Assembly: GCA_016716365.1 (NCBI GenBank)
Contig: JADJWM010000017.1
Span: 258,401 to 322,400, forward strand
Direction of reading: 5' to 3'
Length of the DNA stretch: 64,000 bases
Origin: Chloracidobacterium sp.
GTDB lineage: Bacteria; Acidobacteriota; Blastocatellia; Pyrinomonadales; Pyrinomonadaceae
The notes below the pieces were generated by a model. The model saw only the letters and a program-made list of their open reading frames with translations. It had not been told where the DNA came from and made no database searches. Both the position numbers and the translations under genes were made by a program. Of the stretch, positions 2,162 to 20,822 are shown piece after piece (position 1 is the stretch's first letter; every line of letters begins with the position of its first letter).

Positions 2162-2304
2162 TCCTGCTTCCTACCGACTTTCTACCAGTCAGAAGTGGTG
2201 GAACCTGACATTTGTCAACAAAAAAGTCATGTTTCACCGCCCCACAATCCCGCAAGCAAATAAGCTGTTGGCAGTCTGTTGACTCGCTGAGGGAGAACGT
2301 CCGG

Positions 2305-3435: not shown

Positions 3436-3456
3436 AATTAGCGGCTGGCAGTCGGG

Positions 3457-4458: not shown

Positions 4459-7400
4459 ATGTTATCCACTCACGACGAAATGACGGTGGGCACAGATGCG
4501 CCTATTTTTGCCTCGCCGGCCGCGGTGACCTCCACCGATGAGGACGCGCCGGACGCGACGGCTCAGACGCTCGCATATTCCCCGCATCACATCGTTGGCG
4601 GCTCTCCGCACCCGGGAGTCATCGTGGAGACGCCCGGCCTCGCGAATGTCGAGCCCCCGCCGATTCGCTACCGCCCGCATCTGCCGAAGGAATTGTCCGA
4701 TAGCGGACGGCTCTCCGCGATGCAGCTCGAAAGGATCATCTACGCGGGCCAGGCGCACGAGCAACGACTCGCCGACGGCTCCCGAGCAGGCATCAGCATC
4801 GGCGACGGAACCGGGACGGGGAAAACGGCGACATTGGCCGGTGTGATCCTGGATAACTGGTTCCAGTGGAGACGCAGAGCTGTCTGGTTCTCGGTGAAGG
4901 CGGACCTAATCGAAGCTGTGTCGGCCGAGTTCGCGAGACTCGGGCTCGTGCCGCCGATAAGGTCGATAAACGATTTCCCGACCGACGACGAGATCTCCTT
5001 CGGCGACGGGATCGTCTTCTGCACCTACCGTTCTTTGATCGCGCGTTCGAAATCGGGCGGTCGCCGGATCGACCAGATCACACGCTGGCTCGGGAGCGAC
5101 GGGGTCGTGATCTTCGACGAGGGGCACAAAGCGAAGTACGCATTCGCGGACGATCGCGGCAAATCGACCCAAACGGGAGCGGCCGTGCTGGAGGTTCAGG
5201 AGCCGACGCGCTTCCCCGATGTAAGAGTCGTTTATTCCTCCGCCACCTCCGCCGGCGAGGTCCGCCACCTCGCATACATGTCGAGGCTGGGCCTCTGGGG
5301 CGAGGGGACCAATTTCCCGCTAGGGTTCGAGCAATTCGCCGAGGAGATCGAATCGGGCGGCGTGGGCGCTTTGGAGATGGTCTGCCGCGATCTGAAAGCG
5401 ATGGGCCGGTACCTTTGCGGGAACCTGAGCATGGGAACCGATCCGGAATCCGGTCTCGCCGTCGAGTTCCGCGAGGTGACCCACTGGCTCACCCCAGCGC
5501 AGCGGCGGATGTACGACAACATGGCGCAGGGGTGGCAAGAAGTCTTTCGGAACATCCACCGGGCTCTCGATCTTACGAATTCCGGCAAGGCAACACGCAG
5601 CCAGGCCGTCAACCAATTCTGGGCGGAACATCAAAGGTGCTTCAGGAATCTAATCACCGCGTTCAAGGTGCCAATCCTGATCCGCGAGATCGAGGACGCC
5701 TTGGGCCGAAAGGAGTCCGTGGTCGTCTCCATCACCGGAACCGGCGAGAGTCAGACGAAAAAACAGATCGAGCGGGCGGCCGACCAGGAAGAGGCGATCG
5801 ACGGCCTCGACTTCAGCCCGCGCGAGACGCTGACCCGGCTCGTCGCGAACTGCTTCCCGACCGCATGCTTTCAGGAGCGCACGAACCCGTACAGCGGAAC
5901 CATCGAATTCATTCCCGTTCTCGATCCGGATGGCAACCAGGTCGAGAGCCGAGCAGCCTTGCAGATGAGGGCCGAGCTACTAGACAAACTCTCCGTTCTC
6001 GAAGTTCCGGAGCACCCGCTCGATCAGCTGGTCAATTACTTCGGGGTCGAGAATGTGGCGGAGATGACGGGGCGAAAGAAACGTCTGATCCGCACAGCTT
6101 CGGGCACGCTTGAATATCGGCCCCGCCAACTTGCAGGCGTTCCGTCGAAGCTTGTCAACCTGCACGAGAAGAACGCGTTCCAGAACGGCGACAAGCGCAT
6201 CGCGATCATGTCGGAGGTCGCCTCGACGGGCGATAGCCTCCACGCCGGGCATCATGTTGGCAACAAGCAAAGGCGTCTCCACATCGCCGCGGAGCTGAAA
6301 TGGTCCGCCGACAAGCAGATCCAGGACTTCGGGCGCACCCATCGCACCGGGCAGGTCGCGCCGCCGGTATATCTGCTGGTGTTCACGGAACTCGGCGGCG
6401 AGAAACGATTCTCCGCGACCATCGCCCGCAGGCTCGGCAATATGGGGGCCCTCACCAAAGGGGACCGGCGTGCGGAGAAGGCGGGCAATCTCGATAAGTA
6501 CAACCTCGAATCGAAGGAGGGCCGTTCCGCTCTGAATGTCGTCCTTTCGAGCATCATGCGGGGGAGCGAGATCGGCGGCATCGAAGATCCTAAGCAGGCG
6601 CTGCGCGATATGGGACTTGTAAAGGTGGTGGATGGTGTGGAGCAGGTTCCCGAAGGCGAAAGGACGAACATCCCGCGATTTCTAAACCGTCTACTTTCGC
6701 TCGAAGTTGACCGGCAGAATGCGCTGTTCGATCACTTCTACGAGACATTTCTCGAAACGCTCGAATATCTGAAACAGAAGGGAAAACTGGACGACGGGAT
6801 GGAAGACCTGAAGGCCGCGTCCGTCGAGATCGCCGAACCTCCACAAGTGCTTCACTCCGATGTGCTCACTTCCGCGAAGACGGTCTACTATAAGCTCAAC
6901 CTGAAAGTGGCAACGAAACCTGCAAGATATTTGGAATTATCCGAAAGCGGGGTTCATCAGTTCTTTCAGGATCGGCGTGACGGCTCGTTCGTTGCGGTCC
7001 GTCGAACACTATCGCACACCGATCCGGAGACCGGGGAAAGATATCAGATGTTCTCTATCTCGAAGCCGATAGGCCGGAATCTCTCGTACGTCCGCGAGAG
7101 CGAATTGAATCAGAAATACCGCATCGTCCCAAAAGCGAAGGCGGAGAAATGGTGGCTACAAGAGGAAGCAAAGATCCCTCCGTATGAACACAAAGCGGTT
7201 CACCTTCTCAGCGGGGCACTTCTCCCGATATGGAAATACCTGAAAACTCTAAGCAAGGATGCTCTCGATATCGTTCGGACGACAACGGATGACGGCACCA
7301 GACTCGTCGGCGTTAAGATTTCCGAAGACCGTTTGCGCGATCTGTTTCGTCATTTCGGGTTGCGGTCCGACATTCCGTCCACGGCCCCCGAAGTGCTCAG

Positions 7401-7788
7401 GCTGGTCGACTTTGAAAACAACACCGTACAGCTCGACGGCGATATCCGAATCAAAACGTCCCGATTCCAGGGGCGTCTGCTTACCGAGATCTGCCCTTCG
7501 ACCTTTGAACAGATCCGCGAACTTCGAGGAATGGGTCTGGTCAATATCGTACAAAGTGGAAAACAGCGGTTTTTCCTTCCTGAACGATCCCCGGATGCTT
7601 ACCTCGAGCCGATCCTGGCACTCTACTCACCCAAATCCACCGACATCGATTTTCTGCCGGAGTTGGCAACCGAGTTTCGACCTGTTGAAGCGTCCGAGCC
7701 GATAGAACTCCCCGGATGGTTGGTCGAGCCTGTTCAAACGGAGATGATGAGTCTCAAAATATCAGAGGATACGCTGTTCGCGAGTTAA
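4459..7788 (+). CDS. Strawberry-notch-like SF2 helicase (large ICE/plasmid-type helicase)
   Basis: Walker A GDGTGTGKT (4801-4827). DEGH box (5116-5127). Helicase C region with HRTGQ. 1109 aa. Size and organisation match bacterial Sno homologues, which are usually fused to a methylase. Confidence 0.8.
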   Translation: MLSTHDEMTVGTDAPIFASPAAVTSTDEDAPDATAQTLAYSPHHIVGGSPHPGVIVETPGLANVEPPPIRYRPHLPKELSDSGRLSAMQLERIIYAGQAHEQRLADGSRAGISIGDGTGTGKTATLAGVILDNWFQWRRRAVWFSVKADLIEAVSAEFARLGLVPPIRSINDFPTDDEISFGDGIVFCTYRSLIARSKSGGRRIDQITRWLGSDGVVIFDEGHKAKYAFADDRGKSTQTGAAVLEVQEPTRFPDVRVVYSSATSAGEVRHLAYMSRLGLWGEGTNFPLGFEQFAEEIESGGVGALEMVCRDLKAMGRYLCGNLSMGTDPESGLAVEFREVTHWLTPAQRRMYDNMAQGWQEVFRNIHRALDLTNSGKATRSQAVNQFWAEHQRCFRNLITAFKVPILIREIEDALGRKESVVVSITGTGESQTKKQIERAADQEEAIDGLDFSPRETLTRLVANCFPTACFQERTNPYSGTIEFIPVLDPDGNQVESRAALQMRAELLDKLSVLEVPEHPLDQLVNYFGVENVAEMTGRKKRLIRTASGTLEYRPRQLAGVPSKLVNLHEKNAFQNGDKRIAIMSEVASTGDSLHAGHHVGNKQRRLHIAAELKWSADKQIQDFGRTHRTGQVAPPVYLLVFTELGGEKRFSATIARRLGNMGALTKGDRRAEKAGNLDKYNLESKEGRSALNVVLSSIMRGSEIGGIEDPKQALRDMGLVKVVDGVEQVPEGERTNIPRFLNRLLSLEVDRQNALFDHFYETFLETLEYLKQKGKLDDGMEDLKAASVEIAEPPQVLHSDVLTSAKTVYYKLNLKVATKPARYLELSESGVHQFFQDRRDGSFVAVRRTLSHTDPETGERYQMFSISKPIGRNLSYVRESELNQKYRIVPKAKAEKWWLQEEAKIPPYEHKAVHLLSGALLPIWKYLKTLSKDALDIVRTTTDDGTRLVGVKISEDRLRDLFRHFGLRSDIPSTAPEVLRLVDFENNTVQLDGDIRIKTSRFQGRLLTEICPSTFEQIRELRGMGLVNIVQSGKQRFFLPERSPDAYLEPILALYSPKSTDIDFLPELATEFRPVEASEPIELPGWLVEPVQTEMMSLKISEDTLFAS

Positions 7789-7984: not shown

Positions 7985-9073
7985 ATGAACAACCAAATTA
8001 ATGTCACGACCGTCGACACAGTATCGTTGATTCTAGAGGAGAAGATAGCGTTATACGCCCGGGTGCCTCATTACGTGCTTATAACCGGCGAGCGGGGGAC
8101 CGGCAAGACGACGATCGCCCGGCAGCTGCACGAGCAAAGCCCCAGATCGAAGCGGGAGTTCGTGAGCGTCAATTGTGCAAGCTTCACATCCGAGCTGCTG
8201 GAATCGGAGCTGTTCGGTTATGAGAAAGGAGCCTTCACAGGAGCAGCATCGGCGAAGGCCGGCCTGTTCGAGACGTCCGCGGGTGGGACCCTGTTCCTTG
8301 ACGAGATCGGCGATCTCACGCTGGGCCTCCAAGCGAAACTCCTTAAGGCGGTTGAAGAAAAACGCATCCGCCGGGTCGGCGGCACGTTCGAACGGGAGAT
8401 CGACGTCCGCATCGTGGCCGCCACATCCCGAAATCTGAAGGAGATGGTGAGACATGGGGCGTTTCGTCCCGATCTTTTCGACCGCCTCAACATACTGCAA
8501 CTCGAGACGATCCCGCTTCGGTTCCAGAGGGAACGGATTCGCGAGCTTTTCGTCAAGGAGATGGAAAGGCAGTCCGAGACGGTTGGCCGAACCTTGCCGT
8601 TTGAGATCGATGATGCGGCGGTGGAAGCTGTGCAATCACTCGAATGGAGAGGCAATTACCGTGAACTAAAGAACTTTGCCGTGCGGCTCGCCGTCGAAGC
8701 GATGGACGAAACCGCGATCACGGCCGAACTCGTCATTCAAATGGCTCGAGACGGTTGGGCAGGCGAGACGACAATTTGCTCTGCCAGCGAAGCTCGCTCC
8801 TCCGACATTTGGCACGAGCCTCGGCACACGAAGCAAAGCCTCGTGATGGTCACCTTTGATGCCGAAACCGATGACCTCGATACCGTGTACGTGAAGGCCG
8901 CGGCGACATTCATCGAGCATGCGTTGAAACAAAGCAACGGTAATCTTCGTCGTGCCGCTCGTTCCATGAACACCACGCATTCGACGCTTTCACGGATCCT
9001 CAAAAAGAACAACGAAAGGAAGGCTCGCATCGACGTGAGCTCAAACGGCCTTACTCTTTCGGCGGCGGCGTGA
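7985..9073 (+). CDS. Sigma54-dependent transcriptional activator (bEBP) lacking an N-terminal sensory domain
   Basis: Walker A GERGTGKT about 35 aa from the N-terminus. GAFTGA loop (8228-8245). Walker B LFLDEIGD. FRPDLFDRL. C-terminal Fis-type HTH NGNLRRAARSMNTTHSTLSRILKK. Confidence 0.9.
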   Translation: MNNQINVTTVDTVSLILEEKIALYARVPHYVLITGERGTGKTTIARQLHEQSPRSKREFVSVNCASFTSELLESELFGYEKGAFTGAASAKAGLFETSAGGTLFLDEIGDLTLGLQAKLLKAVEEKRIRRVGGTFEREIDVRIVAATSRNLKEMVRHGAFRPDLFDRLNILQLETIPLRFQRERIRELFVKEMERQSETVGRTLPFEIDDAAVEAVQSLEWRGNYRELKNFAVRLAVEAMDETAITAELVIQMARDGWAGETTICSASEARSSDIWHEPRHTKQSLVMVTFDAETDDLDTVYVKAAATFIEHALKQSNGNLRRAARSMNTTHSTLSRILKKNNERKARIDVSSNGLTLSAAA

Positions 9074-10504: not shown

Positions 10505-10762
10505 ATGGAACAGAAGAAAGGAACACCGGCTTCTGAAGCGGCCGCCAGCGTGGAGCGCGTCACGGAGCCGAAGGCGACGATCAAGATCGAAGGGCAGGAG
10601 TTCGAGCTGGACGCCGCGTTGGCACAGGAGGACAAGACCTTGAAGGTCGTCCTCCAGCCGCACTTCGCCTCGGTCGAGAACGCGAACATCACGCGCGAGG
10701 TGAAGGAGGGGAAACTTACGGTCACGATCGTCAAGCGTGCCCAGCATAAGGGGGCTCGGTGA
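10505..10762 (+). CDS. Small protein, candidate ubiquitin-like (beta-grasp) modifier / PRTRC protein C-like
   Basis: 85 aa with AGGAGA RBS. The last ~60 aa alternate beta-like and helix-like segments (TIKIEGQEFELD..., KLTVTIVKR). GTGA overlap with the next gene. Sits in an operon with E2-like, JAB and E1-like genes. Confidence 0.45.
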   Translation: MEQKKGTPASEAAASVERVTEPKATIKIEGQEFELDAALAQEDKTLKVVLQPHFASVENANITREVKEGKLTVTIVKRAQHKGAR

Positions 10763-11001
10763 ACCTCGAAACCCCGCTCGATCTATTGATCGGCGAGACG
10801 GAACGAGTGAACCCGGCGATCCTCCTGGCCGAGGAGTTCATGCGAAGAGACGCCGCCGACCTTCTCAGCGCGGATGAGATAGATCGGGCGGCGGAGGTCC
10901 TGAACGACGGCCGGGCGGAGATCGAGACGATCAGGCGTCAGATCGCGGCCTTCGCGAGATCATCCCCGAGTGCGTCGAGCCGGACCCCGATAGGATTCTA
11001 G
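10759..11001 (+). CDS. Hypothetical protein (same frame as the next ORF, separated by one TAG)
   Basis: GTG start overlapping the previous stop. Ends at TAG 10999-11001. The following ORF starts at 11005 in the identical frame. Confidence 0.4.
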   Translation: MNLETPLDLLIGETERVNPAILLAEEFMRRDAADLLSADEIDRAAEVLNDGRAEIETIRRQIAAFARSSPSASSRTPIGF

Positions 11002-11004
11002 CCA

Positions 11005-11832
11005 GTGAGTGTACAGTTCAAGTCACCAAGTTCGAGCGAACGTGGGTTCGGCGAGCGGCTTTCGAGATCGCTCGAGTACCTAAGCTTCAAAGCCCGAAGT
11101 CACAACGCTATCGCGTCTTACGAACTTGTCGAACGAGTTCTCTCCGAGCAGCGAAAGTACGTGATGTATCGAGAGATGTTCCCGGCGGAGTGGAAGCGAT
11201 CAAGGGCAAGTCTGTACCGGCGCGGGTATTACACGAGGTACAGCGAGCGTGTGAACGAACTGTTCAATCTGGTCAATGAAAATTGTTTTCCGTTGCTGGA
11301 GTTCGCCTACGACGATCCGGAGAACGAGTTCGAGAAGTTCGCGATCCCGCCGATGAACGTCGATCTGTGCTGCGAGGAAATCTACTTCGAGAATCTGAAG
11401 GTCAGTTACGCCGCCGCGTTGATCTTTTGCGTCCCCGACGAGGCGTGGGACTTCCTGAACCATCGATTCAACTTGTCGAGAAGCGATTTTCCGGAAATAG
11501 TTGCCGATCCCCACCCGAACGTATGGGACGGAAAGAACGGCTGGCTGCTCGGGGAACTCTTGCGATTGGTCGATCACTCCACGGGCAATCCGTGGCTCGA
11601 CAGCAACTACTGCCAAACGGCCGATTGGTACGACTGGGACCGGGAAACGATCGCGGGGCTCACCGCCGAGTATGAAGCCGCCAACGAGGTCTTCGAAAAG
11701 CTTAACGTGCTCGACGAGATGATCGAGGTCGATCCGGGAAAGATGCTGCGGGCACTGATCGACTTCTGGAACACGGGCAAGCATCCGGGATTGGTGTTGC
11801 CATCGCCGCCCGCATCGGAGAACCATCTATGA
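11005..11832 (+). CDS. Hypothetical protein (with 10759-11001, possibly PRTRC protein F-like)
   Basis: 275-aa ORF with coding-like composition. ATGA overlap with the downstream ERF gene. Confidence 0.55.
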   Translation: MSVQFKSPSSSERGFGERLSRSLEYLSFKARSHNAIASYELVERVLSEQRKYVMYREMFPAEWKRSRASLYRRGYYTRYSERVNELFNLVNENCFPLLEFAYDDPENEFEKFAIPPMNVDLCCEEIYFENLKVSYAAALIFCVPDEAWDFLNHRFNLSRSDFPEIVADPHPNVWDGKNGWLLGELLRLVDHSTGNPWLDSNYCQTADWYDWDRETIAGLTAEYEAANEVFEKLNVLDEMIEVDPGKMLRALIDFWNTGKHPGLVLPSPPASENHL

Positions 11833-12326
11833 ACAAGAGCGAAAGCATCGCCAATCTCGCGAAATCCCTCGCCCTGGTGCAGGCGAATCTGGCACCGGCG
11901 AAGCGCGACTCCACCAACCCGTTCTTCAACTCGACGTACGCCGATCTCACCTCGGTGTGGGGGAGCTGTCGCGAACTCCTGGCTAAACACGGGCTCAGCG
12001 TGATCCAGGGTAACAGCATCGGGGCGAACAACACGGTCATCGTCGAGACGATCCTCGCTCATGAGTCGGGCCAGTGGATCCAAAGCGAGCTGTGCATGCC
12101 GCTCGCGAAGAACGATCCGCAGGGGGTCGGTTCGGCGATCACGTACGGCAGGCGTTACGGCTTGGCGGCGATTGTCGGGATAGTCGCCGACGACGATGAC
12201 GACGGGAACGCGGCATCGCTCAAGAGCGGCAACGGCCATGTCCAGCCCCCGACGAAGAACCAGCAACCGTCGTACCGCCGCCGTCCCGTCGGCCAGCCCG
12301 CGAACGGGTCCGTCCAGGTCAGTTGA
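11829..12326 (+). CDS. ERF-family single-strand annealing protein
   Basis: N-terminal IANLAKSLALVQANLAPAKRDSTNPFFNSTYADLTSVWGSCRELLAKHGLSVIQ matches the ERF-superfamily core pattern. Acidic DDDDD tail. Confidence 0.7.
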   Translation: MNKSESIANLAKSLALVQANLAPAKRDSTNPFFNSTYADLTSVWGSCRELLAKHGLSVIQGNSIGANNTVIVETILAHESGQWIQSELCMPLAKNDPQGVGSAITYGRRYGLAAIVGIVADDDDDGNAASLKSGNGHVQPPTKNQQPSYRRRPVGQPANGSVQVS

Positions 12327-12338
12327 CCGAAATCCGTC

Positions 12339-13016
12339 ATGCGAAATCACAAAGTCCCGCCGGATGCGGAAGCCGCCCTCTACTTCCTCCCCGGCCAGTA
12401 CTTATTCGAAGCGTTCCGTGAGAACGGACACGGGCTGAAGGCGTTGTCCAGCGTGCAGGTGACGAGGGCGTTTCGCGATCTTCAGACCGATACCGGGTGG
12501 ATAGATCGGAGAATATTAAGGTATCGCGAAGCGACGGACGGAATCGCGATTCTCTCGTTTCTTCCAGCAGGCTCGCGAACGATCACGGTGGCGTTTCCGA
12601 ACGACCGTGTCGAGGCGCTGACCCTGCCGCTCCCGACCTTGATCCTCCTCGGGAAGGGGAAAGACTACTATCTTTGGGCGGCCGGAACTTCGAAGGTGAC
12701 CCGGAGCACACGACTCGCCGTCGCTCCGTTGCCGAACATCGGCTCAGGGAAGATCTGCTTCGGGAAAAACGAGGTGCCGGAGACACATCCGTCCGCGCTT
12801 ACCACCATCTGGAAGCTCATTTTCGACGCGCCGTTCAACGGCGACCATTCGGCGGGGCGGTGCCAAACGGAGGACGACGTTCGCGACCTGCTCGCGAAGT
12901 TGGCCGCTGACAAAGTGAAGAAGTTTCCAACGCCGCAATTAATCATGTCGTCGAGCACCGTCGAGGACGCGTGGGAAAGCATAGTCGAACGTACCCGATA
13001 CGACAGTCGGTTTTAG
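12339..13016 (+). CDS. E2 (UBC)-like protein / PRTRC protein B-like
   Basis: LPNIGSGKICFG (12729-12764) resembles the eukaryotic E2 HPNI-x3-G-x-IC active-site motif. Candidate catalytic Cys codon at 12756-12758. Lies immediately upstream of the JAB and E1-like genes. Confidence 0.6.
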   Translation: MRNHKVPPDAEAALYFLPGQYLFEAFRENGHGLKALSSVQVTRAFRDLQTDTGWIDRRILRYREATDGIAILSFLPAGSRTITVAFPNDRVEALTLPLPTLILLGKGKDYYLWAAGTSKVTRSTRLAVAPLPNIGSGKICFGKNEVPETHPSALTTIWKLIFDAPFNGDHSAGRCQTEDDVRDLLAKLAADKVKKFPTPQLIMSSSTVEDAWESIVERTRYDSRF

Positions 13017-13029
13017 CACCGATTTTCTT

Positions 13030-13689
13030 ATGTCATCGAACCTCTTCGTTCCACCAAAACTTGTGGGGCATCGCATCGCTGCGTCTGAAAATGACCCGAT
13101 CGAAGCCGCGTTGTACGAATACCTTCTGGCCGGAAACGGGTTGTTCGTTCGGGCTAGACGCCGGGAGTTCGCCGTGTCGTTACCGGTCTGCACCCGGAAG
13201 ATCGTCGGACTCACGAACCAAACAGTGGGAATCTGGTGGACAACAAGGACGAAGATACGCGCGTCGTTGTGGAGCGAGATCTTGCAGCACAGTCAGAAAA
13301 CGCATACTTCGTCTTGTTTCAAGGAAGAAGTCTACCTGATCTATTGGGATAGACTTCTCGGCGCTTGGCGGTGGCGGGCTTCGGGCCGCGACAGCAATTG
13401 GGCATCGACGATCGCGGACGACAGCTTGCCCGAGTACGTGGAGTGCTGCATCGAACTGCACACCCACCCGCCCGGGGCTTTGAGCTTCAGCGCGGCAGAC
13501 GACCGCGACGAACTCGGAAAGTTCCGCATCTTCGCGATCCTCATCGATGTCCACGATAAGCCAAAGATACGGTTCCGCTGCGGCGTCTACGAACATCTTG
13601 TCCCGATCCCCGCCGCATGGGTCAGCGAGATGCCGGACGGCATCGTCGACCTCAACGAGATCGAGGCGCTTGTGGAGATGTTGTCGTGA
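13030..13689 (+). CDS. JAB/MPN (JAMM) metalloprotease / PRTRC protein A-like
   Basis: Exact JAMM motif H-T-H-PPGALSF-S-AA-D (HxHx7Sx2D) at 13459-13500. Confidence 0.8.
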   Translation: MSSNLFVPPKLVGHRIAASENDPIEAALYEYLLAGNGLFVRARRREFAVSLPVCTRKIVGLTNQTVGIWWTTRTKIRASLWSEILQHSQKTHTSSCFKEEVYLIYWDRLLGAWRWRASGRDSNWASTIADDSLPEYVECCIELHTHPPGALSFSAADDRDELGKFRIFAILIDVHDKPKIRFRCGVYEHLVPIPAAWVSEMPDGIVDLNEIEALVEMLS

Positions 13690-14534
13690 ACCGGATAGAT
13701 CTCAGCTTCGCGAACGCGGGCGTCGTGATGCCCAAAGAACATAACAAACTCCGGATCATACAGGTCGGTGCGGGCGGAACGGGATCGTTCGCGGCACTCG
13801 CCATCGCCCGGTTCCTGTACGAGCTGAAAGAGTCGGGAAAGGCAGCCGAAATGCTCATCATCGATCCGGATGTGGTCGAGGCCGGAAATATACCCCGAAG
13901 CAATTTCTGCGCTGCGGAGATAGGGAGTTTCAAGGCCCAGACTCTAGCGACTCGCATCGCGCTCGCGTGGGGGCTGGAATGCGGCTACGCGAACGAGAGA
14001 TTCGACGCCGAGGCGCATCTGAAGCAATCGTCGGGCGACTACCGCAACCTCACTGTGATCGTCGGTTGCGTGGACAACCACCTCGCGAGGCGCGAGATGC
14101 ACCTGGCCGTCGAAAAGCATCAGGGCTATAGATCGGACGACGCGCCGAACATCTGGTGGATCGACGGCGGTAACGGGAGATTCTCCGGGCAGGTACTTAT
14201 CGGCTCGAACGCGAAGCCGATGAAAGCCGTGAAGCTCTTCGTTGGTTCCAGCATCTGCCGATCCCTGCCCGCTCCGTCATTAGTTCATCCGGAGCTGCTG
14301 ACGGACTTGGAAAAAGCGACTAGGCCGATCACCCAAGTCTCGTGCCCGGACCGCGTTCGACTCGGAGAGCAGAGCCTGAATGTGAATCAGCGGGTCGCGG
14401 TCGAGATCGGCGAGATGCTCTCGGCAATGTTCCTTACACGAAATCTCCGACGCTTCGCGACCTACTTCGATCTCGAGACGGGGACGAGCCGTTCACTCTA
14501 CTGCACTCCGGATCAGATCGAATCAGCGACCTGA
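13686..14534 (+). CDS. ThiF/MoeB-type E1-like adenylating enzyme (PRTRC ThiF-like)
   Basis: Rossmann loop GAGGTG (13767-13784). IIDPDVVEAGNIPRSNF corresponds to DxDxVxxSNLxRQ. Also GCVDN. GTG at 13686 overlaps the JAB stop (GTGA). An alternative ATG lies at 13728. The track start at 13617 overlaps the JAB gene by 73 nt. Confidence 0.85.
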   Translation: MNRIDLSFANAGVVMPKEHNKLRIIQVGAGGTGSFAALAIARFLYELKESGKAAEMLIIDPDVVEAGNIPRSNFCAAEIGSFKAQTLATRIALAWGLECGYANERFDAEAHLKQSSGDYRNLTVIVGCVDNHLARREMHLAVEKHQGYRSDDAPNIWWIDGGNGRFSGQVLIGSNAKPMKAVKLFVGSSICRSLPAPSLVHPELLTDLEKATRPITQVSCPDRVRLGEQSLNVNQRVAVEIGEMLSAMFLTRNLRRFATYFDLETGTSRSLYCTPDQIESAT

Positions 14535-14549
14535 AGGAAGCGATAAGTT

Positions 14550-14879
14550 ATGTCGAGGCTTCTCACCGAAGAGCTTAGTAGATCTCTACCAAAACTGCGT
14601 GCTCAGGAGAGGTCGGAGGACCCAATCGTTCACGCGATCTTCTTCTTTCCATTGAGCGATTGGAAATGGTTCGTGACGGAAGGGGAACGGAACGGGAACG
14701 ATGTGACTTTTTTCGGCTATGTGGAAGGCTTTGAGGCCGAACTGGGCCATTTTACTTTAAGCGAACTCGGAGGCGTGGATATCGACGGGTTCAAGATCGA
14801 ACGCGTTGAGGATTTCGAGCCAGCACCGTTGCAACACTGCCTCGAACTCCACTCTGGCAGATCGAGAACAAGCGGTTGA
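14550..14879 (+). CDS. DUF2958 domain protein
   Basis: EDPIVHAIFFFPLSDWKWFVTEGERNGNDVTFFGYVEGFEAELGHFTLSEL matches the DUF2958 pattern common on conjugative elements. Confidence 0.7.
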   Translation: MSRLLTEELSRSLPKLRAQERSEDPIVHAIFFFPLSDWKWFVTEGERNGNDVTFFGYVEGFEAELGHFTLSELGGVDIDGFKIERVEDFEPAPLQHCLELHSGRSRTSG

Positions 14880-15226
14880 CGGAAGAGGCACATGGAACGT
14901 CAGCAATCAACAATTCAGGCGAATGGGCATCCGTCCATTCCGCCGACAAACTCGCTCGCGTCGTCGGTTCTGCGGAACATATTCGGACGTGGCTCACAAG
15001 AAATATCGGAAGAGCGATCCGATCACCAACGCGCCCCGGAGGACTGCGGGCGGGGGAAACAAACCGGCGCCGCAATGTCTGATTCACCAGCTTCAGCAAT
15101 GGCGAGGAATGCTATTGACCGCCTTTCCGCACGAAAGAGAGAGCAGCCGTCCGGCTTGGGATCGGCATCGACGAGGTTGAATCGCTGCCGTTCGATCTTT
15201 CGAGACTTGAGAGCGAAGGGATCTTC

Positions 15227-16321
15227 ATGAACATCGACTGCCGCGGATTCGGCTGTCTCGTCAGGCAGTTGGAGTGGAAGGCGCTTGGCGTAAAGCTGCC
15301 GGAAGATGCGGCCGTGCGGGTCAGCCCACCACGCGCCGGGTTGCTCCCTGATGTCTATCGAAACAAGCTGATGCGCGGCGCGGCTCAGGCACACCACGCG
15401 CTGAACCGATATAGTTTCCGGTTTACGCTCTGCGAAACGGTCTGGGGGACAAGCGAGTACAAGTGGATCCCTTGGGGTGCGTTCGAGCAGTTCGAGACGG
15501 AATATCTGAAAGCGAACGAAACGCTTGCGGCGGCGAAGGCGGAGACGCTTGGGAATTACGACGACATCCTAACCGTCCTGCAAGATAGTTTCTACAAACT
15601 CGCGGAAGACTCGGCGGACCGGTTCCAGGCGACCACGAGCGAGCCTTTCGACCGGGCCGAGTTCATCAATGCGGTCGCGGCCCAGGCGATCGGGATGGTG
15701 CCGACTCCGGCGATGATCAGAGACGGTCTGACGATTGAGATGAGGCCCAAGGTGGTAATCCTGGGTTCGGAGGTGGCCGCCGAACAGAAATTGACGCGCG
15801 AATTAAGACTCGAGGCAACGCGGGCGGAAACGGAGACCCGTGCCGTCGAGATCGAAGCGAAGACCAGGAACAACATCGAGCGGCTGAAAGTGGCCGGCTT
15901 TGAGGAAGACCAGCGCCGCGAGCGAGAGGTCAAGGAACGAATACGCGATATGAAGATCGAGGCGGCCCGCCGCGAGGCGGAGGAGGCGGTCTCGCCGATC
16001 AAGGAAGGTCTGGCCCAGATCGCCGCGAGGATATGCGAAGCGGCGCAGGAGATGTCCGTGCGGCTGAAAGATGCGAACTTCGTACCGGGCAGCCTCGCGA
16101 AACGGGCCCGCCAGATGTGCGAATGGTACAGCCTCATGAACTTCACGGGTGATGACTCTCTCGAAGACGTGCTCGCCAAATTGCAGGACGCCGCCGGCCG
16201 CGAAGCCAAGCAGCGCTCCCCGGAAGAGATGCGGGACGCCCTCAACGATGTCCTGCGTGCGACCACCGTTCAGTCCAGAAAACTCCTCGACGAAGACCGA
16301 CTATCAGCCCTCGAACTCTGA
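15227..16321 (+). CDS. Hypothetical protein with E/R-rich coiled-coil centre
   Basis: 364-aa ORF. Central EATRAETETRAVEIEAKTRNNIERLKVAGFEEDQRREREVKERIRDMKIEAARREAEE segment. No recognised catalytic motif. Confidence 0.55.
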   Translation: MNIDCRGFGCLVRQLEWKALGVKLPEDAAVRVSPPRAGLLPDVYRNKLMRGAAQAHHALNRYSFRFTLCETVWGTSEYKWIPWGAFEQFETEYLKANETLAAAKAETLGNYDDILTVLQDSFYKLAEDSADRFQATTSEPFDRAEFINAVAAQAIGMVPTPAMIRDGLTIEMRPKVVILGSEVAAEQKLTRELRLEATRAETETRAVEIEAKTRNNIERLKVAGFEEDQRREREVKERIRDMKIEAARREAEEAVSPIKEGLAQIAARICEAAQEMSVRLKDANFVPGSLAKRARQMCEWYSLMNFTGDDSLEDVLAKLQDAAGREAKQRSPEEMRDALNDVLRATTVQSRKLLDEDRLSALEL

Positions 16322-16376: not shown

Positions 16377-17996
16377 ATGACGACTACCGAACCGGACGCC
16401 AGGAGCGTCGATAGATTCCTGCGCGAACTCGACGTGCGGATAAGAGCCCGCTACCCCTTGATAGCCATCAACACATACGAGGAGGATCGGGTTCGCGAAG
16501 CTCTGATCGATCTCGTATTTCAGGAGCGGCATAAGGAGAAACCGCTGTACATCTGGAGCCGGCCCGCGGGCCTGCAGAAAGTGTTCGATCCGAAGGAGGG
16601 CATCCTTCAGAACCCAGTATCGGTCGGCGACACGGAGGACCCGGAGGGCGTTCTGGGTTTCATCTCGGAACAGAAGACGGGGCTCTTCTTGCTGTGCGAC
16701 TATGCCCCCTACATCTCCCCGTACGGTCAGGAAGATCCGTTACTGGTTCGCCGACTTCGAGAGATCGCCTGGAAGCTGAAATCCACCAAAGCGACGGTAC
16801 TGTTCGTCGCCCCGAACTTTCCCGACCTGAAGACGCTGGAAAAGGAAATAACGCAGATCGACCTCGAACTACCGAAGGAGGGCGAGATCGAGGAGTCGAT
16901 CGAGCTGCAGCTTGAGAATCTTCGATCGAGCGGGCTGGCCATCGATCTCGAGAAAGAGACGCAGGGCGCTTTGCTTCAGTCTCTCCTCGGGCTTACCGCC
17001 GGGGAGATCAGCAACGTGATCGCGAAGGCCGTGATCAGCTGCAACGGCCTCAATCGGGAATCGATCAACGTCATCCTCGAAGAGAAGAAGAACGTGATCC
17101 GCGGCAGCGGCTCGCTGACCTATGTCCATCCAGAGCCCGCGAGCAATCTCGGCGGTTATCGAGCTTTGCGATCGATTCTTGAGCGTGCCGCGTACACCTT
17201 CAGCCCGCGAGCGAAGGCCCGGCACGTCGAACCGTGCAAGGGAATACTGCTTGTCGGATTGCCCGGATGCGGAAAAGATCTTTGCAAGCGGGTCGCATCG
17301 TCGATCACCAACCGCGCCCTGCTAGATCTCGATTTCGGGTCGATCATGGGCGAGGGGGGCGGCGTCATCGGCTCGTCGGCGATGTCTATCAAGCGGGCCC
17401 TGTCGATCGCGGGGACGATCAAGGGGATCCTCGGAATCAGTGAATTCGAGAAAGCGGTCTCCGGGATGAAGTCGTCGAACAAGACCGACGGTGGTGAAAC
17501 GGCCCGGACGATCTCCTACCTGCTCAACTGGATGCAGGACAACAAGGACGTGCTCGTGTTCGCGACCGCAAACGACGTTCGCGAACTCGAATCGGAGCAG
17601 TTCCGCATCGGCCGGTTCTCTTACATCCACTTCGTCGATCTCCCTGACATGGAGGATCGGTCCGAGATCTTCAAGGTTCATTTGAAGAAACGCGAACTGG
17701 TTCCCGAACAGTTCGACCTCGAAAAGCTCGTCGATAAGAGCAAGGACTTCTCCGGAGCGGAGATCGAAGCGGCGGTGAAGGACGGCGTGCTGGAAGCTTT
17801 TATCGACGGCGACCGCCCGGCGGAAACGCGGGACATCCTCAAGGCGGTCGAGGGCATAACGCCGACCGCCCAGATGATGAGCGAGAAGATCGAGGAGATC
17901 CGCAAATGGGCTCGCAACAATATCAAAGGAGCGGCGGGCAGGACCGGCAGTCAAGCAATTGGCGGCAATCGCGGCGACCGGGTCTACGAATTTTGA
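16377..17996 (+). CDS. AAA+ ATPase (classic AAA clade) with atypical Walker A and B residues
   Basis: GLPGCGKD (17256-17279), ILGISE (17427-17444), sensor-1 FATAN, FRIGRFS, and a C-terminal lid (FSGAEIEAAVKDG). ATG at 16377 is chosen because the track start at 16149 overlaps the upstream gene by 173 nt. Confidence 0.85.
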   Translation: MTTTEPDARSVDRFLRELDVRIRARYPLIAINTYEEDRVREALIDLVFQERHKEKPLYIWSRPAGLQKVFDPKEGILQNPVSVGDTEDPEGVLGFISEQKTGLFLLCDYAPYISPYGQEDPLLVRRLREIAWKLKSTKATVLFVAPNFPDLKTLEKEITQIDLELPKEGEIEESIELQLENLRSSGLAIDLEKETQGALLQSLLGLTAGEISNVIAKAVISCNGLNRESINVILEEKKNVIRGSGSLTYVHPEPASNLGGYRALRSILERAAYTFSPRAKARHVEPCKGILLVGLPGCGKDLCKRVASSITNRALLDLDFGSIMGEGGGVIGSSAMSIKRALSIAGTIKGILGISEFEKAVSGMKSSNKTDGGETARTISYLLNWMQDNKDVLVFATANDVRELESEQFRIGRFSYIHFVDLPDMEDRSEIFKVHLKKRELVPEQFDLEKLVDKSKDFSGAEIEAAVKDGVLEAFIDGDRPAETRDILKAVEGITPTAQMMSEKIEEIRKWARNNIKGAAGRTGSQAIGGNRGDRVYEF

Positions 17997-18015
17997 GGAC
18001 GGTGTTCAAGAGGTT

Positions 18016-18414
18016 ATGAGCAAGTACATGTCATTCGAATCGCAGTCGTTTGCGAACGGCGAGCTGCTGCTCGAAGCCCTGTCGGAATTAGGATTCGCGA
18101 CCGTCGTGCAGGGTAAGGACCTGCCCTTGGACGGTTGGGACAAGCGAGCGGGGCGGACCGCCGACATCATCATTCGCCGGCGGGACGTCAAGGCTCACAA
18201 CCTTCTCGCGGACGTCGGCTTTCAGAGAACGTCGTCGGGCTACATCGCCGTGATCGACGACATGGATCTCGATCATCGCCTGGGCCGCGACTTCGTCGTG
18301 CGTTTGCAGAATCAATATCACGAAGCCGCGGCCCGGAAGATGGCGAAAAAGCTCGGCGGAACCTTGGTCAAGGAGCGGATCGGGAAAACCGTGAAGATCC
18401 GGGTCAGATTTTGA
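18016..18414 (+). CDS. DUF1257 domain protein
   Basis: MSKYMSFESQSF..GELLLEALSELGF....VGFQRTSSGYIAVIDD resembles the DUF1257 pattern. ATG at 18016 preceded by AAGAGG. Confidence 0.6.
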   Translation: MSKYMSFESQSFANGELLLEALSELGFATVVQGKDLPLDGWDKRAGRTADIIIRRRDVKAHNLLADVGFQRTSSGYIAVIDDMDLDHRLGRDFVVRLQNQYHEAAARKMAKKLGGTLVKERIGKTVKIRVRF

Positions 18415-18427
18415 AGGAGCGCTACCT

Positions 18428-18622
18428 ATGGCTGAAATCGAATTCACCATCGACACCGAGACGGGGAGTTGCGAAACGAAGATCAACGGCATCCAAGGGT
18501 CATCCTGCGAGAAGACTGCCCGCCAATTAAGGGAGGTTCTCGGGACCCCGACGACGGATCGGAAGACGGCGGAGTATCACGTCACACCTGCGGTGCGGAG
18601 GCGAGTGGGCCCCCGTGAATAA
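18428..18622 (+). CDS. DUF2997 domain small protein
   Basis: MAEIEFTIDTETGSCETKINGIQGSSCEKTARQLREVLG resembles the DUF2997 pattern with two Cys. RBS GAAGGAG. Confidence 0.6.
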   Translation: MAEIEFTIDTETGSCETKINGIQGSSCEKTARQLREVLGTPTTDRKTAEYHVTPAVRRRVGPRE

Positions 18623-19292
18623 CGAAGTGGTGTTCGTGCTGGAGCCGGACGCGGGACGCGTCACCGTCGAGATCTCGCAGGCTTCCGGGCAGGCGGCGAA
18701 CGATCTCGCACAAGATCTGGGTAGACGCGTAGACCTGAACTGCGCGAAGCCGGCCAGTGACACGAGATACTTGCCCGTTCTACAGCCTCACCCCGCGACC
18801 GAAGACGAATCGAAAACGGACCCTTTCTCGATCTGGCTGTACCGGCTTTACCATAACTCGGTCGTCGACGGTCCCGGCCGCCGCAGCGTCATACAGACCG
18901 CGGGATGCTCGATCCGCTGCAGGCAATGCTTCGTGCCTCAGACCCATGACCGGAAAAACGGTGCGTTAGTCCCGCTCTCGTCAATATTGAAGGAGATCAT
19001 CTCCTATGGCGCAGACCACGACGGTGTAACCATCCTCGGCGGCGAGCCGTTCGACCAACCGGAACCCGTCGCCGAACTCGTGTCGAGGTTGAAGGACCGA
19101 GGGATCCATATAACGGTTTACTCCGGATACACCATCGAGCAACTAATCGAGCGACGGGCTTCGAGTGTCGACTACATCCTCACCCATATCGACCTGCTCA
19201 TCGATGGTCCGTTCATCGGCAGCATGCGTGATGGAGCGGGCGAGTATCGAGGGTCGCGGAATCAGCGAATCGTTGGGCTGACCAATCAATAA
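18615..19292 (+). CDS. NrdG/PflA-like radical SAM activating-enzyme family protein with ~75-aa N-terminal extension
   Basis: VVDGPGRRSVIQTAGCSIRCRQCFVPQTH with CX3CX2C at 18906-18929. GVTILGGEPF. GTG start overlaps the DUF2997 gene by 8 nt. Confidence 0.8.
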   Translation: MNNEVVFVLEPDAGRVTVEISQASGQAANDLAQDLGRRVDLNCAKPASDTRYLPVLQPHPATEDESKTDPFSIWLYRLYHNSVVDGPGRRSVIQTAGCSIRCRQCFVPQTHDRKNGALVPLSSILKEIISYGADHDGVTILGGEPFDQPEPVAELVSRLKDRGIHITVYSGYTIEQLIERRASSVDYILTHIDLLIDGPFIGSMRDGAGEYRGSRNQRIVGLTNQ

Positions 19293-19387: not shown

Positions 19388-19642
19388 TTATCTACTCGCC
19401 TGATTGCTACCGATTGTTCTTCGAGATCTCTGGGCGTTGCGATCCTCGTACTCCATGATGTCCAGGAGCCGATAACGAGCCTGATTGCCGATCTTGAACG
19501 CCTTCAAGTGCCGGGGGTTGGATTTGGGTAGGGCCCGAAGACGCTGGAACCTCTTGGCGATCGCGGTTTGCGTTCCGATGAGTTTCCAGCGCTCGGCCAG
19601 TTGAAGATTGTCGAGGACTTCTTGGTTCATAATTTCTTCCAC
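19388..19642 (-). CDS. Excisionase/AlpA-like HTH protein (tentative)
   Basis: LQLAERWKLIGTQTAIAKRF...HLKAFKIGNQARYRLLDIMEYE resembles MerR-type excisionase HTH domains. Position next to the tRNA-flanked island end. Confidence 0.35.
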   Translation of the reverse strand: MEEIMNQEVLDNLQLAERWKLIGTQTAIAKRFQRLRALPKSNPRHLKAFKIGNQARYRLLDIMEYEDRNAQRSRRTIGSNQASR

Positions 19643-19835
19643 TCACTCTCCAAGTTCCCCTTCGCAAGAGCCGTGCCTCGTGAGACCTGGCGATCATGGC
19701 CAAGTCATCCGTTGTTCCGTTCAACCTCTCCGTCCGTATCCCAGCGACCTCCAAAGCAGTACTTGCATCGATGCCGATGCTCGTAGGTTGGGTAGACCCA
19801 TGGCAATCTACCCGAAAATCTACCCAAAACAGCAA
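19643..19835 (-). pseudogene. Possible C-terminal remnant of a tyrosine recombinase
   Basis: ALEVAGIRTERLNGTTDDLAMIARSH loosely parallels the integrase C-terminal [28 protein letters not shown]. The His and Tyr positions are not conserved and no N-terminal part exists. Confidence 0.2.
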
Positions 19836-19922: not shown

Positions 19923-20009
19923 TGGTGCGGACGAGAAGAATCGAACTTCCACTGCCTTGCGGCAACAGGCTTCTGAGACCTGCGCGTCTACCAGTTCCGC
20001 CACGTCCGC
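19923..20009 (-). tRNA. tRNA-Leu (anticodon CAG)
   Basis: Hand-folded cloverleaf: acceptor GCGGACG/CGTCCGC, anticodon stem CAGGT/GCCTG with loop CTCAGAA, long variable arm, T-loop TTCGATT, discriminator A, encoded CCA. Confidence 0.9.
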
Positions 20010-20084: not shown

Positions 20085-20822
20085 TTGAATGTGGTCCACA
20101 CCATTCGTTCTGCTATATTTAAGACGGTGCGATCGCTTCGAGCAAATTTAACAAAGATCCAAAAGAGGATCGCCGCCGCGGCAGAGCGTGCCGAACGCGA
20201 TCCGGGCGGGATCACGCTGGTCGCCGTGACCAAAACTCACCCGGCTTCAGTCATCAAGGCTGCGATCAAGGCCGGGATCACCACTTTTGGGGAGAACAAG
20301 GTACAGGAGGCAGAGGCTAAGATCAGCGAGGTTGGGCGGGACAAGGCCGAATGGCACCTGATCGGCCACCTGCAAAAGAACAAGGCACGCAAGGCTGCCG
20401 TGCTCTTTGACGTGATCCACTCGCTCGATTCACCTGAGCTTGCCCACCGGCTGGAACGAATGTGCGAGGAGGAGGGCCGCGAAACGCTGTCGGTGCTCGT
20501 GCAAGTCGACCTGGCCGGCGAGAAAACAAAATCGGGGATCGTTGAGACGCAGCTTCCGTTGCTCGTCGAGGTTTTGAAACGATGCAGCCGACTTCGATTT
20601 GACGGCCTGATGGTCATGCCGCCGTTGTTTGAAGATCCGGAAGAAACTCGACCGTATTTTGTGCGGTTAAGAAACATCCGCGACCGGCTTCGCGACGAAG
20701 GCGCTTTTTCCGGCGGGGCCGGCCACCTTTCAATGGGGATGAGCCACGATCTGGAGGTCGCGGTCGAAGAAGGTTCGACCATTGTCCGTGTCGGCACAGC
20801 AATATTCGGCGGTCGTAGCTGA
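20085..20822 (+). CDS. yggS: YggS-family pyridoxal-phosphate homeostasis protein
   Basis: VAVTKTHP, FGENKVQEA and WHLIGHLQKNKARK motifs. TTG start at 20085 is uncertain. Confidence 0.9.
   Translation: MNVVHTIRSAIFKTVRSLRANLTKIQKRIAAAAERAERDPGGITLVAVTKTHPASVIKAAIKAGITTFGENKVQEAEAKISEVGRDKAEWHLIGHLQKNKARKAAVLFDVIHSLDSPELAHRLERMCEEEGRETLSVLVQVDLAGEKTKSGIVETQLPLLVEVLKRCSRLRFDGLMVMPPLFEDPEETRPYFVRLRNIRDRLRDEGAFSGGAGHLSMGMSHDLEVAVEEGSTIVRVGTAIFGGRS

Follow-up and report, generated by a model that had tools for sequence, protein, structure and literature searches.

On the plus strand of a 64,000-nucleotide stretch of contig JADJWM010000017.1 from Chloracidobacterium sp., hereafter called the window, four consecutive genes encode a Ycf46-like AAA+ ATPase, a DUF1257 (Ycf35-family) protein, a DUF2997 protein and an activase-type radical S-adenosylmethionine (SAM) enzyme. 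These genes form a real, tightly coupled operon, found repeatedly on mobile DNA of no fewer than four bacterial phyla, an arrangement far beyond chance. The cassette is an undescribed kind of system, a conserved module without a described counterpart, and the chemistry proposed for it below is predicted from its sequences. A preliminary description made from the letters of the window had supposed that no described system matches it, and none was found in Pfam, NCBIfam, PADLOC or PHROGs, nor in the literature searched for DUF1257, DUF2997, PRTRC and radical SAM/anti-phage/AAA.

At the junctions, as read from the letters, 19 nucleotides (nt) separate the AAA and DUF1257 genes and 13 nt the DUF1257 and DUF2997 genes, and the DUF2997 and radical SAM genes overlap by 8 nt. 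These values, like the gene coordinates compiled from the open reading frame listing (Table 1), agree with those given in the preliminary description. A ribosome-binding site of the GAGG type lies 5' of the DUF1257 gene and one of the AAGGAG type 5' of the DUF2997 gene, and a scan of positions 16377-19292 of the plus strand gave no promoter-like or terminator-like site inside the cassette. The domain assignments first proposed by eye were upheld by hidden Markov models, as the Pfam matches of all four proteins exceed the curated cut-offs. The ATPase matched PF00004 at 4.5e-13 and in addition AAA_lid_3, the DUF1257 protein PF06868 at 2.2e-07 (31.5 bits, cut-off 22.2), the DUF2997 protein PF11211 at 2.6e-08 (34 bits, cut-off 24.1), and the radical SAM enzyme Fer4_12 (PF13353) at 5e-28 and Radical_SAM (PF04055) at 3.4e-10.

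For the distribution among Acidobacteriota one genome per GTDB species was scanned with the alignment of the radical SAM enzyme. This yielded 79 loci, nearly all from Pyrinomonadaceae/Blastocatellia, with more than one copy of the cassette in several genomes. In a tblastn census the order AAA-DUF1257-DUF2997-radical SAM was found in 43 of the 46 loci that extend 2.35 kb or more upstream of the radical SAM gene. Across loci the intergenic distances range from 11 to 30 nt (AAA/DUF1257) and from 9 to 20 nt (DUF1257/DUF2997), and the last two genes overlap by 8 nt in 48 loci and by 4 nt in 12. Synteny in other genomes had been named as a point on which the proposal could fail; the four genes are syntenic in dozens of them. 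Among the best 120 of 1984 homologues the radical SAM proteins share 65-95% identity over their whole length, including the N-terminal extension, and the named records among these 120 are Pyrinomonadaceae/Blastocatellia, except for one deposited as Leptolyngbya sp. 7M. This 6.99-Mb record (locus L002, CP070897.1) carries a Pyrinomonadaceae-type element at the same tRNA/YggS/YggT site as the window. Its flanking genes are Acidobacteria-like too, and it may be misassigned.

Plasmids of other phyla were cross-matched with three tblastn queries, namely the N-terminal region of the AAA protein, a Paenibacillus-type radical SAM enzyme and a Bacillus-type radical SAM enzyme. A radical SAM gene lies within about 5 kb of the AAA gene on 18 of the 26 plasmids bearing this AAA family, and the eight plasmids without a detected radical SAM gene are all cyanobacterial; the query with the N-terminal region only recovers the same 26 plasmids. 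On Paenibacillus polymyxa plasmid pPPM1a the genes for AAA, DUF1257, DUF2997 and a '4Fe-4S single cluster domain' protein are contiguous, and the four proteins carry the accessions WP_014600202 to WP_014600205. In Rhodococcus the order is AAA, a DUF1257-like gene, DUF2997, a gene for a protein with a helix-hairpin-helix (HhH) domain, and radical SAM. Bacillus licheniformis has the radical SAM gene 3 kb upstream of AAA, DUF1257 and DUF2997 genes which are separated from each other by one hypothetical gene each. The distance between the radical SAM and AAA genes is 1.2-3.5 kb on plasmids of Bacillus, Paenibacillus, Arthrobacter and Paenarthrobacter. On Treponema succinifaciens plasmid pTRESU01 (locus L089, 6366-8521) a radical SAM-AAA pair sits inside a contractile-injection-system-like locus with VgrG/Pvc8 and baseplate protein V, and DUF1257 and DUF2997 were not detected at this locus. 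Outside cyanobacteria the radical SAM enzyme is a regular fourth component, in Acidobacteriota, Bacillota and Actinomycetota and, with the AAA protein alone, on the Treponema plasmid. Its earlier rating as an occasional addition on this island has to be given up. Cluster-O mycobacteriophages (Corndog gp96) and a streptococcal satellite have full-length relatives of the AAA protein, and many plasmids carry relatives too. Two jumbo-phage-like contigs were found, one with DUF1257, DUF2997 and a full-length, intein-containing AAA gene among replication and nucleotide genes, the other with DUF1257 alone within the stretch examined. A scan of IMG/VR with the radical SAM enzyme gave no relatives.

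Of what has been described, the cyanobacterial stress operon around ycf46 (slr0374), which includes ycf35/DUF1257 and DUF2997, comes closest; slr0373 and slr0376 may be the latter two genes. The preliminary description had named AAA, DUF1257 and DUF2997 as a conserved trio, notably of cyanobacteria; the trio is a genuine conserved set, but it is not confined to cyanobacteria and reaches well beyond them. Clustering of the DUF2997 and DUF1257 genes in cyanobacteria, in some clusters together with ferredoxin (fed7), has been reported (PMC4284462), and the function of the slr0374/ycf46 operon is stated as unknown (PMC7496141). In common with the window, the cyanobacterial sets have an AAA protein homologous over its full length (loci L088 and L094) and a DUF1257 gene adjoining the AAA gene, as in L088. 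In contrast to the window, where the AAA motifs are non-canonical and a radical SAM gene is present, the cyanobacterial proteins have canonical Walker motifs, no radical SAM gene was seen in L088 or L094, and some clusters have the ferredoxin instead of it. Furthermore the cyanobacterial genes lie on the chromosome, are induced by stress and have been linked to an arrest of growth under severe stress, whereas the copy in the window resides on a mobile element. On plasmid pPg_01 of Pseudanabaena galeata (L094, 2577-8521) genes for GrpE, Hsp70, DUF1257, an ATP-binding protein, a hypothetical protein, DUF2997 and AAA follow each other, and this setting of the trio amid GrpE and an Hsp70-family gene is consistent with a role in protein remodelling.

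The radical SAM enzyme had been taken for an NrdG-like enzyme of the activase type, and the three motifs expected of an NrdG/PflA activase are all present. The cluster motif CX3CX2C, located at 18906-18929 as first described, reads CSIRCRQC (residues 98-105), GGEP begins at 19038 (residue 142), and DGPGRR at residues 85-90 (nt 18867) is invariant in the family alignment (A3). It corresponds to the N-terminal DGxGxR motif by which the pyruvate formate-lyase activating enzyme touches its substrate peptide. The protein consists of a DUF2997-like module (residues 1 to about 55, nt 18615-18779), a variable linker (residues 56-72) and an NrdG-sized core (residues 76-225). The core matches the NrdG model TIGR02491 end to end (1.6e-29) with 102.8 bits, which is below the equivalog cut-off of 126.1. 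PflA and other glycyl-radical activases rank next, the PFLA model at 1.4e-19 with 70.4 bits, below the cut-off of 231.75. Among solved structures it matches the pyruvate formate-lyase activating enzyme (3c8f and 8fo0, 8.8e-09), aligned through DGPG(I/R)R and the cluster motif, and among phage families phrog_626, 'anaerobic ribonucleotide reductase small subunit' (1.7e-28). The three motifs, the size of the core and the best model and structure matches are thus shared with NrdG and PflA, from which the enzyme differs by the score below cut-off, by the lack of a glycyl-radical partner in the window and neighbourhood (neither NrdD nor PflB turned up in the loci annotated or inspected), by the DUF2997-like module and by the constant linkage to an AAA+ protein. 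A second, divergent type of radical SAM enzyme (about 37% identity) was observed in loci L085 (9246-9947), L072 (9211-9897) and L079 (9923-10690). It carries RVAGY or RIAGY directly before (D/E)GPGRR, a near-match to the glycyl-radical fingerprint, where the window type has LYRLY. In L072-L076 this second type adjoins a C-terminal fragment of a window-type enzyme, which suggests decayed tandem insertions.

The N-terminal 55 residues of the radical SAM enzyme are highly conserved (A3) and match the DUF2997 profile with an hhalign probability of 93.9% (E 1.6e-07, 38 columns). BLASTP and Pfam gave no match between this N-terminus and DUF2997, the profile-profile comparison alone being positive. 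Homologues from Paenibacillus, Rhodococcus, Treponema and proteobacteria have no N-terminal extension and possess a C-terminal 'xVxINxDGxxxxxGF' segment which resembles the DUF2997 hairpin. Plasmid nrdG genes found beside nrdD cover only 73-78% of the query and lack a DUF2997-like extension. The AAA-linked radical SAM enzymes appear to form a distinct subfamily marked by the extra DUF2997-like module, and the presence of this module suggests that the enzyme docks on the same partner as DUF2997. Where the preliminary description had put forward DUF1257 or DUF2997 as a possible substrate or adaptor, the module offers a definite docking hypothesis in its place.

The AAA protein is composed of a family-specific N-terminal region (residues 1 to about 270) and a classical-clade AAA domain with lid (residues 280-500). 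It matches phrog_8638 over its full length (1.9e-87) and also aligns full length, N-terminal region included, with the AAA proteins neighbouring DUF1257 in loci L088, L094, L090, L092 and L093. The match to the closest solved relatives, p97/Cdc48, VAT and PAN, is confined to residues 278-500. The idea that the N-terminal region is a degenerate AAA domain found weak support (hhalign probability 30%, E 5.5e-04). The Walker A motif reads GLPGCGKD (nt 17256), the Walker B motif ILGISEFEK (nt 17427), and the arginine-finger region GRFSY (nt 17610). In the window protein and in that of L085, GKD stands for GKS/T, SE for DE and GRFSY for GRFDE, whereas the eight other homologues compared are all canonical. 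These exchanges may reflect a compensatory swap of magnesium-coordinating residues or a loss of ATPase activity. The acidobacterial AAA proteins have a glycine-rich insertion at pore loop 1.

DUF1257, for which 131 representative clusters were found, belongs to the alpha/beta proteins; its residues L22, D66 and G68 are invariant, the latter two in a D-x-G-F motif (alignment A1). Its AlphaFold2 model reached a predicted local distance difference test (pLDDT) of 93.5. A fold search of the PDB with this model gave nothing significant (best E 0.28), and searching the solved structures by sequence was likewise uninformative; one unnamed viral structure matched with a template modelling (TM) score of 0.72. 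DUF2997 consists of a beta-hairpin followed by a helix and keeps a Gly-x(1-2)-Cys motif (G24, C27) across phyla; it matches phrog_23133 at 1e-06, and the acidobacterial set comprises 63 unique sequences. Two glycines were considered as radical sites. The one near the C-terminus of DUF2997 (RRVGxxE) was rejected because it varies within the clade. G68 of DUF1257 is not supported, being conserved in lineages that lack the radical SAM enzyme; in the model it lies at a loop-strand junction, and its surroundings do not fit RVxG[FWY].

We tentatively favour, without rating it as probable, the explanation that the cassette is a conserved mobile-element module in which a protein-directed radical enzyme is tethered to an AAA+ remodelling complex and which serves in conflict or establishment. 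Judged by its family, the Ycf46-like protein would be a classical-clade hexameric unfoldase or remodeller, and from the strict co-occurrence we infer that DUF1257 and DUF2997 are its obligate small partners. Because of the DGPGRR/CX3CX2C/GGEP architecture the radical SAM enzyme is read as a protein-directed activase, which would cleave SAM to the 5'-deoxyadenosyl radical and take a hydrogen atom from a protein, not from a small molecule. The DUF2997-like module might tether it to the surface bound by free DUF2997, on DUF1257 or on the AAA ring, or might alternatively pair with free DUF2997 itself. In this way the ATPase, holding or threading a protein, could present it to the radical chemistry; a client protein or the invariant Gly/Cys loop in DUF2997 would be the candidate target. 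The module would then serve its element in host conflict or establishment, be it counter-defence, defence or replication control, and in Acidobacteria it would work beside, yet separably from, a ubiquitin-like conjugation set.

Several observations weigh against this explanation. With the non-canonical Walker A and B motifs and GRFSY, ATPase activity of the window protein is not assured. The glycyl-radical signature PS00850 had no match in any window reading frame of at least 50 amino acids, and the relaxed motif R[IVT]xG[FWY] is absent from the AAA, DUF1257 and DUF2997 families. The Gly/Cys motif of DUF2997 and the D-x-G-F motif of DUF1257 are kept in lineages lacking the radical SAM enzyme (cyanobacterial L094, phage-like L086) and are for this reason not specifically targets of that enzyme. 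The C-terminal hairpin of the homologues without extension matches DUF2997 weakly (probability 51%, E 1.5e-04). The AlphaFold2 model of the radical SAM enzyme, calculated from a 30-sequence alignment, had a pLDDT of 40, and the docking is deduced from the shared module alone.

Related radical SAM enzymes, which bear the hairpin, directly follow a ClpB-like AAA_2 ATPase in proteobacteria, namely on plasmids of Polaromonas (pPNAP02, L096), Rhizobium (L097) and Moellerella (L098). A PIN protein is encoded in these operons as well, and so is a giant helicase of the Mokosh/Hhe/PDC-S37 kind which has kinase and restriction endonuclease domains; the operons look like an undescribed defence-type system. 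The radical SAM enzyme is coupled to two unrelated AAA+ clades, in contexts typical of conflict systems. A bolder version of the tethered-enzyme explanation would make the module a radical-based protein machine of a new kind, with the activase installing a radical or a radical-derived modification on a minimal protein, at the Gly/Cys loop of DUF2997, or on clients presented by the AAA+ protein, so that mobile elements could disable or rewire host or rival proteins, with the same logic reused with the ClpB-like ATPase; we regard this as rather improbable.

In Acidobacteria the cassette is not a free-standing unit but forms the 3' end of a conserved backbone of about 10 kb with genes for ubiquitin-like, E2, JAB and E1 proteins and for p460, a family of about 460-480 amino acids whose gene precedes that of the AAA protein. 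The upstream block, positions 10505-14879 of the plus strand, is treated here as co-linear context outside the four-gene core. Its gene order is shared by L001, L002, L085 and most genome loci. In the tblastn census p460 was present in 35 of the 39 loci with enough upstream DNA. In L085, a distant copy of 46% GC, the whole block is kept at 37-65% protein identity, with a 179-aa gene and a DnaN sliding clamp in addition. The cassette could be regarded as the downstream arm of the ubiquitin-like/E2/JAB/E1 system, with a Cdc48/PAN-like AAA+ protein acting on tagged proteins and the other components as accessories. This is argued for by the E1, E2 and JAB genes which 29 of 35 acidobacterial loci, and also L085, have no more than 10 kb upstream, by p97/Cdc48, VAT and PAN as the best solved relatives of the AAA domain, and by a C-terminal motif of a hydrophobic, a Glu/Asp and a hydrophobic residue (DRVYEF, LSALEL, IDSLEF) which was found in 70 of 70 AAA, 52 of 52 p460 and 12 of 12 WGR proteins of loci L001-L085. 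The window AAA protein ends in DRVYEF and p460 in LSALEL; the motif is absent from 13 other families of the block, and its sharing suggests a common docking pocket within the block. A function of the LxALEL-type motif in binding the beta clamp, prompted by the DnaN gene of L085, was unsupported, the penultimate residue being acidic. The HhH-domain protein of the Rhodococcus cassette was seen to end in RRLEF. The ubiquitin-linked role is nevertheless judged unlikely, since the cassettes of Paenibacillus, Rhodococcus and Bacillus have no E1, E2 or JAB gene nearby, the ubiquitin-like block is also missing from the acidobacterial loci L003/L004, L005 and L049, and the trio occurs in cyanobacteria and phages without any ubiquitin-like genes.

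The upstream E1, JAB and E2 proteins match PRTRC_ThiF, PRTRC_A and PRTRC_B, as well as Prok-E2_D and Prok-JAB, and in this resemble the PRTRC system. In distinction from PRTRC, the scores are under the NCBIfam cut-offs (ThiF 123.4 versus 144.75, A 30.7 versus 101.8 and B 60 versus 131.45 bits). Neither ParB nor PRTRC C, D, E or F was matched, and the ubiquitin-like protein, p80, p275 and p382 gave no hit. A 2006 survey of prokaryotic E1/E2/JAB operons (PMC1779556) called them mobile and their role unknown; it does not mention AAA, DUF1257, DUF2997 or radical SAM genes, the terms 'radical' and 'AAA' having no occurrence in it.

The cassette might also be a stand-alone anti-phage defence system which is carried as cargo. 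The copy in L005, which has p460 and an Slr1353_N protein and no E1/E2/JAB, is located beside a CBASS operon, the related radical SAM/AAA_2 pairs sit with Mokosh/Hhe-like and PIN proteins, and the streptococcal satellite has its AAA gene near the cargo end. The AAA domain resembles IetA and matches the IetA models at 2.9e-19, with the differences from IetAS that the match is limited to residues 281-510 and that no gene for the IetS serine protease is present. The content downstream of the radical SAM gene is variable, with AbiE, CapP/CBASS, SoFic and RmrA-type genes, and before the AAA gene there is a variable insert encoding a 138-aa Slr1353_N protein or a 144-aa WGR protein. The cassette belongs to the conserved backbone, adjoining a cargo region, because its position is fixed while the downstream defence genes vary. 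This fixed position, the homologues known from large plasmids and from the genomes of lytic or temperate phages, and the lack of a PADLOC model for DUF1257, DUF2997 or the full AAA protein make a carried defence system unlikely. Of the earlier proposal of a novel defence or element-maintenance module the novelty has held, as no described match was found, but defence is no better supported than establishment or counter-defence, because the cassette is in the backbone and the known defence genes (AbiE, CBASS/CapP, SoFic) are in the variable cargo.

As a further alternative the radical SAM enzyme might, like viperin or QueE, make a modified nucleotide or another small molecule. Its product would be an effector or signal directed against viruses or the host, with the AAA trio as regulator or sensor. 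The mobile-element and defence-neighbourhood setting would fit, and there are weak matches to the PADLOC pVip model (4.5e-06 for the window enzyme, 5e-09 for the Paenibacillus homologue), to viperin (4e-04; viperin_w_prok 19.5 bits with a cut-off of 180), to QueE models (3e-08, at best 33.5 bits with a cut-off of 300) and to phrog_2076 (4.8e-09). The matches to protein-directed activases are far stronger, however, so that the enzyme stands nearer to these than to prokaryotic viperins; DGPGRR is characteristic of glycyl-radical activases, and the 150-residue NrdG-sized core is smaller than viperin. No QueC, QueD, FolE, DpdA or kinase partner was seen in the inspected loci. Synthesis of a small molecule is considered improbable. 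The weakest of the rivals is that the enzyme is a true NrdG or another classical glycyl-radical activase for a host-encoded partner, supplying the element with nucleotides or metabolism, with the AAA trio as an unrelated neighbour, which is very improbable in spite of the best family matches being to TIGR02491 and phrog_626, of the name NrdG in JGI and some GenBank records of homologues and of the nucleotide-metabolism genes around DUF1257 in phage-like contigs, as the score is under the equivalog cut-off, neither a glycyl-radical enzyme in the inspected loci nor its signature in the reading frames of the 64-kb window was seen, the enzyme always comes with a DUF2997-like module which plasmid nrdG beside nrdD lacks, and the linkage to the AAA trio is maintained across phyla.

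The location on a mobile island, as first proposed, was confirmed, and the island adjoins a tRNA-Leu gene (Table 1). The cassette is the final coding block before tRNA-Leu(CAG), beyond which host genes for YggS-like, YggT and YebC proteins follow, with a Pfam match for 20085-20822; the same flanking host genes are present in L002. No integrase or att repeats were found in positions 1-21000 of the window. The Strawberry-notch-type helicase in the left part of the island is a protein of 1109 aa with AAA_34 and Helicase_C_4 domains, and between the sigma-54 activator and the ubiquitin-like gene an acidic 382-aa protein (p382) is encoded on the plus strand.

Table 1. Features of the cassette and of the island around it (positions in the window)
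Feature	Coordinates	Strand	Remarks
DUF3854-like protein, N6-methyltransferase-like protein, Strawberry-notch-type helicase	2212-7788		left part of island, plus strand
Sigma-54 activator	7985-9073	+	AAA and helix-turn-helix, without receiver domain
Ubiquitin-like protein	10505-10762	+	85 aa, ends ...KRAQHKGAR
p80	10759-11001	+	
p275	11005-11832	+	
ERF recombinase	11829-12326	+	Pfam/NCBIfam
Prok-E2_D	12339-13016	+	Pfam/NCBIfam
JAB protein	13030-13689	+	Pfam/NCBIfam
ThiF/E1-like protein	13617-14534	+	Pfam/NCBIfam
DUF2958	14550-14879	+	Pfam/NCBIfam
p460 homologue	14892-16321	+	split by frameshift
Ycf46-like AAA+ ATPase	16377-17996	+	539 aa
DUF1257 (Ycf35-family) protein	18016-18414	+	132 aa
DUF2997 protein	18428-18622	+	64 aa
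Activase-type radical SAM enzyme	18615-19292	+	225 aa
tRNA-Leu(CAG)	19923-20009	-	ARAGORN; right-hand island boundary

The p460 protein has a coiled-coil-rich C-terminal half and gave no family match. In the window its gene is broken into the reading frames 14892-15230 and 15227-16321 by a 1-nt deletion near 15136, where CGAAA-GAGAG is found and the close relatives L007, L008 and L062 have CGAAAGGAGAG. A tblastn search with the homologues of L001, L002 and L005 gave 74% identity spanning the two frames, and the deletion either inactivates the gene or stems from an error of the assembly. Beside the tRNA gene a near-consensus sigma-54 -24/-12 element, AGGCACGGCTCTTGC, was noted at 19664-19678 of the minus strand, 22 nt upstream of an 84-aa open reading frame (19388-19642, minus strand). 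The scan of the window for sigma-54 promoters gave 42 matches where 48 were expected, which is not above chance.

In anaerobic metabolism, the known task of radical SAM activases is to serve large glycyl-radical enzymes, each as a dedicated partner. An activase-type enzyme wired to an AAA+ unfoldase and two small proteins, and carried by phage-like contigs, plasmids and integrative elements of mostly aerobic soil bacteria from several phyla, points to unexplored radical chemistry on proteins. Such enzymes are repeatedly paired with AAA+ proteins, and the two clades concerned are unrelated, which suggests that conflicts of mobile elements with hosts draw on a general design principle. Paenibacillus polymyxa M1 with its plasmid pPPM1a and the Bacillus plasmids offer tractable model hosts, and the cassette provides a first functional handle on the long-standing unknowns Ycf46, Ycf35/DUF1257 and DUF2997, which are conserved in cyanobacteria and red-lineage plastids.

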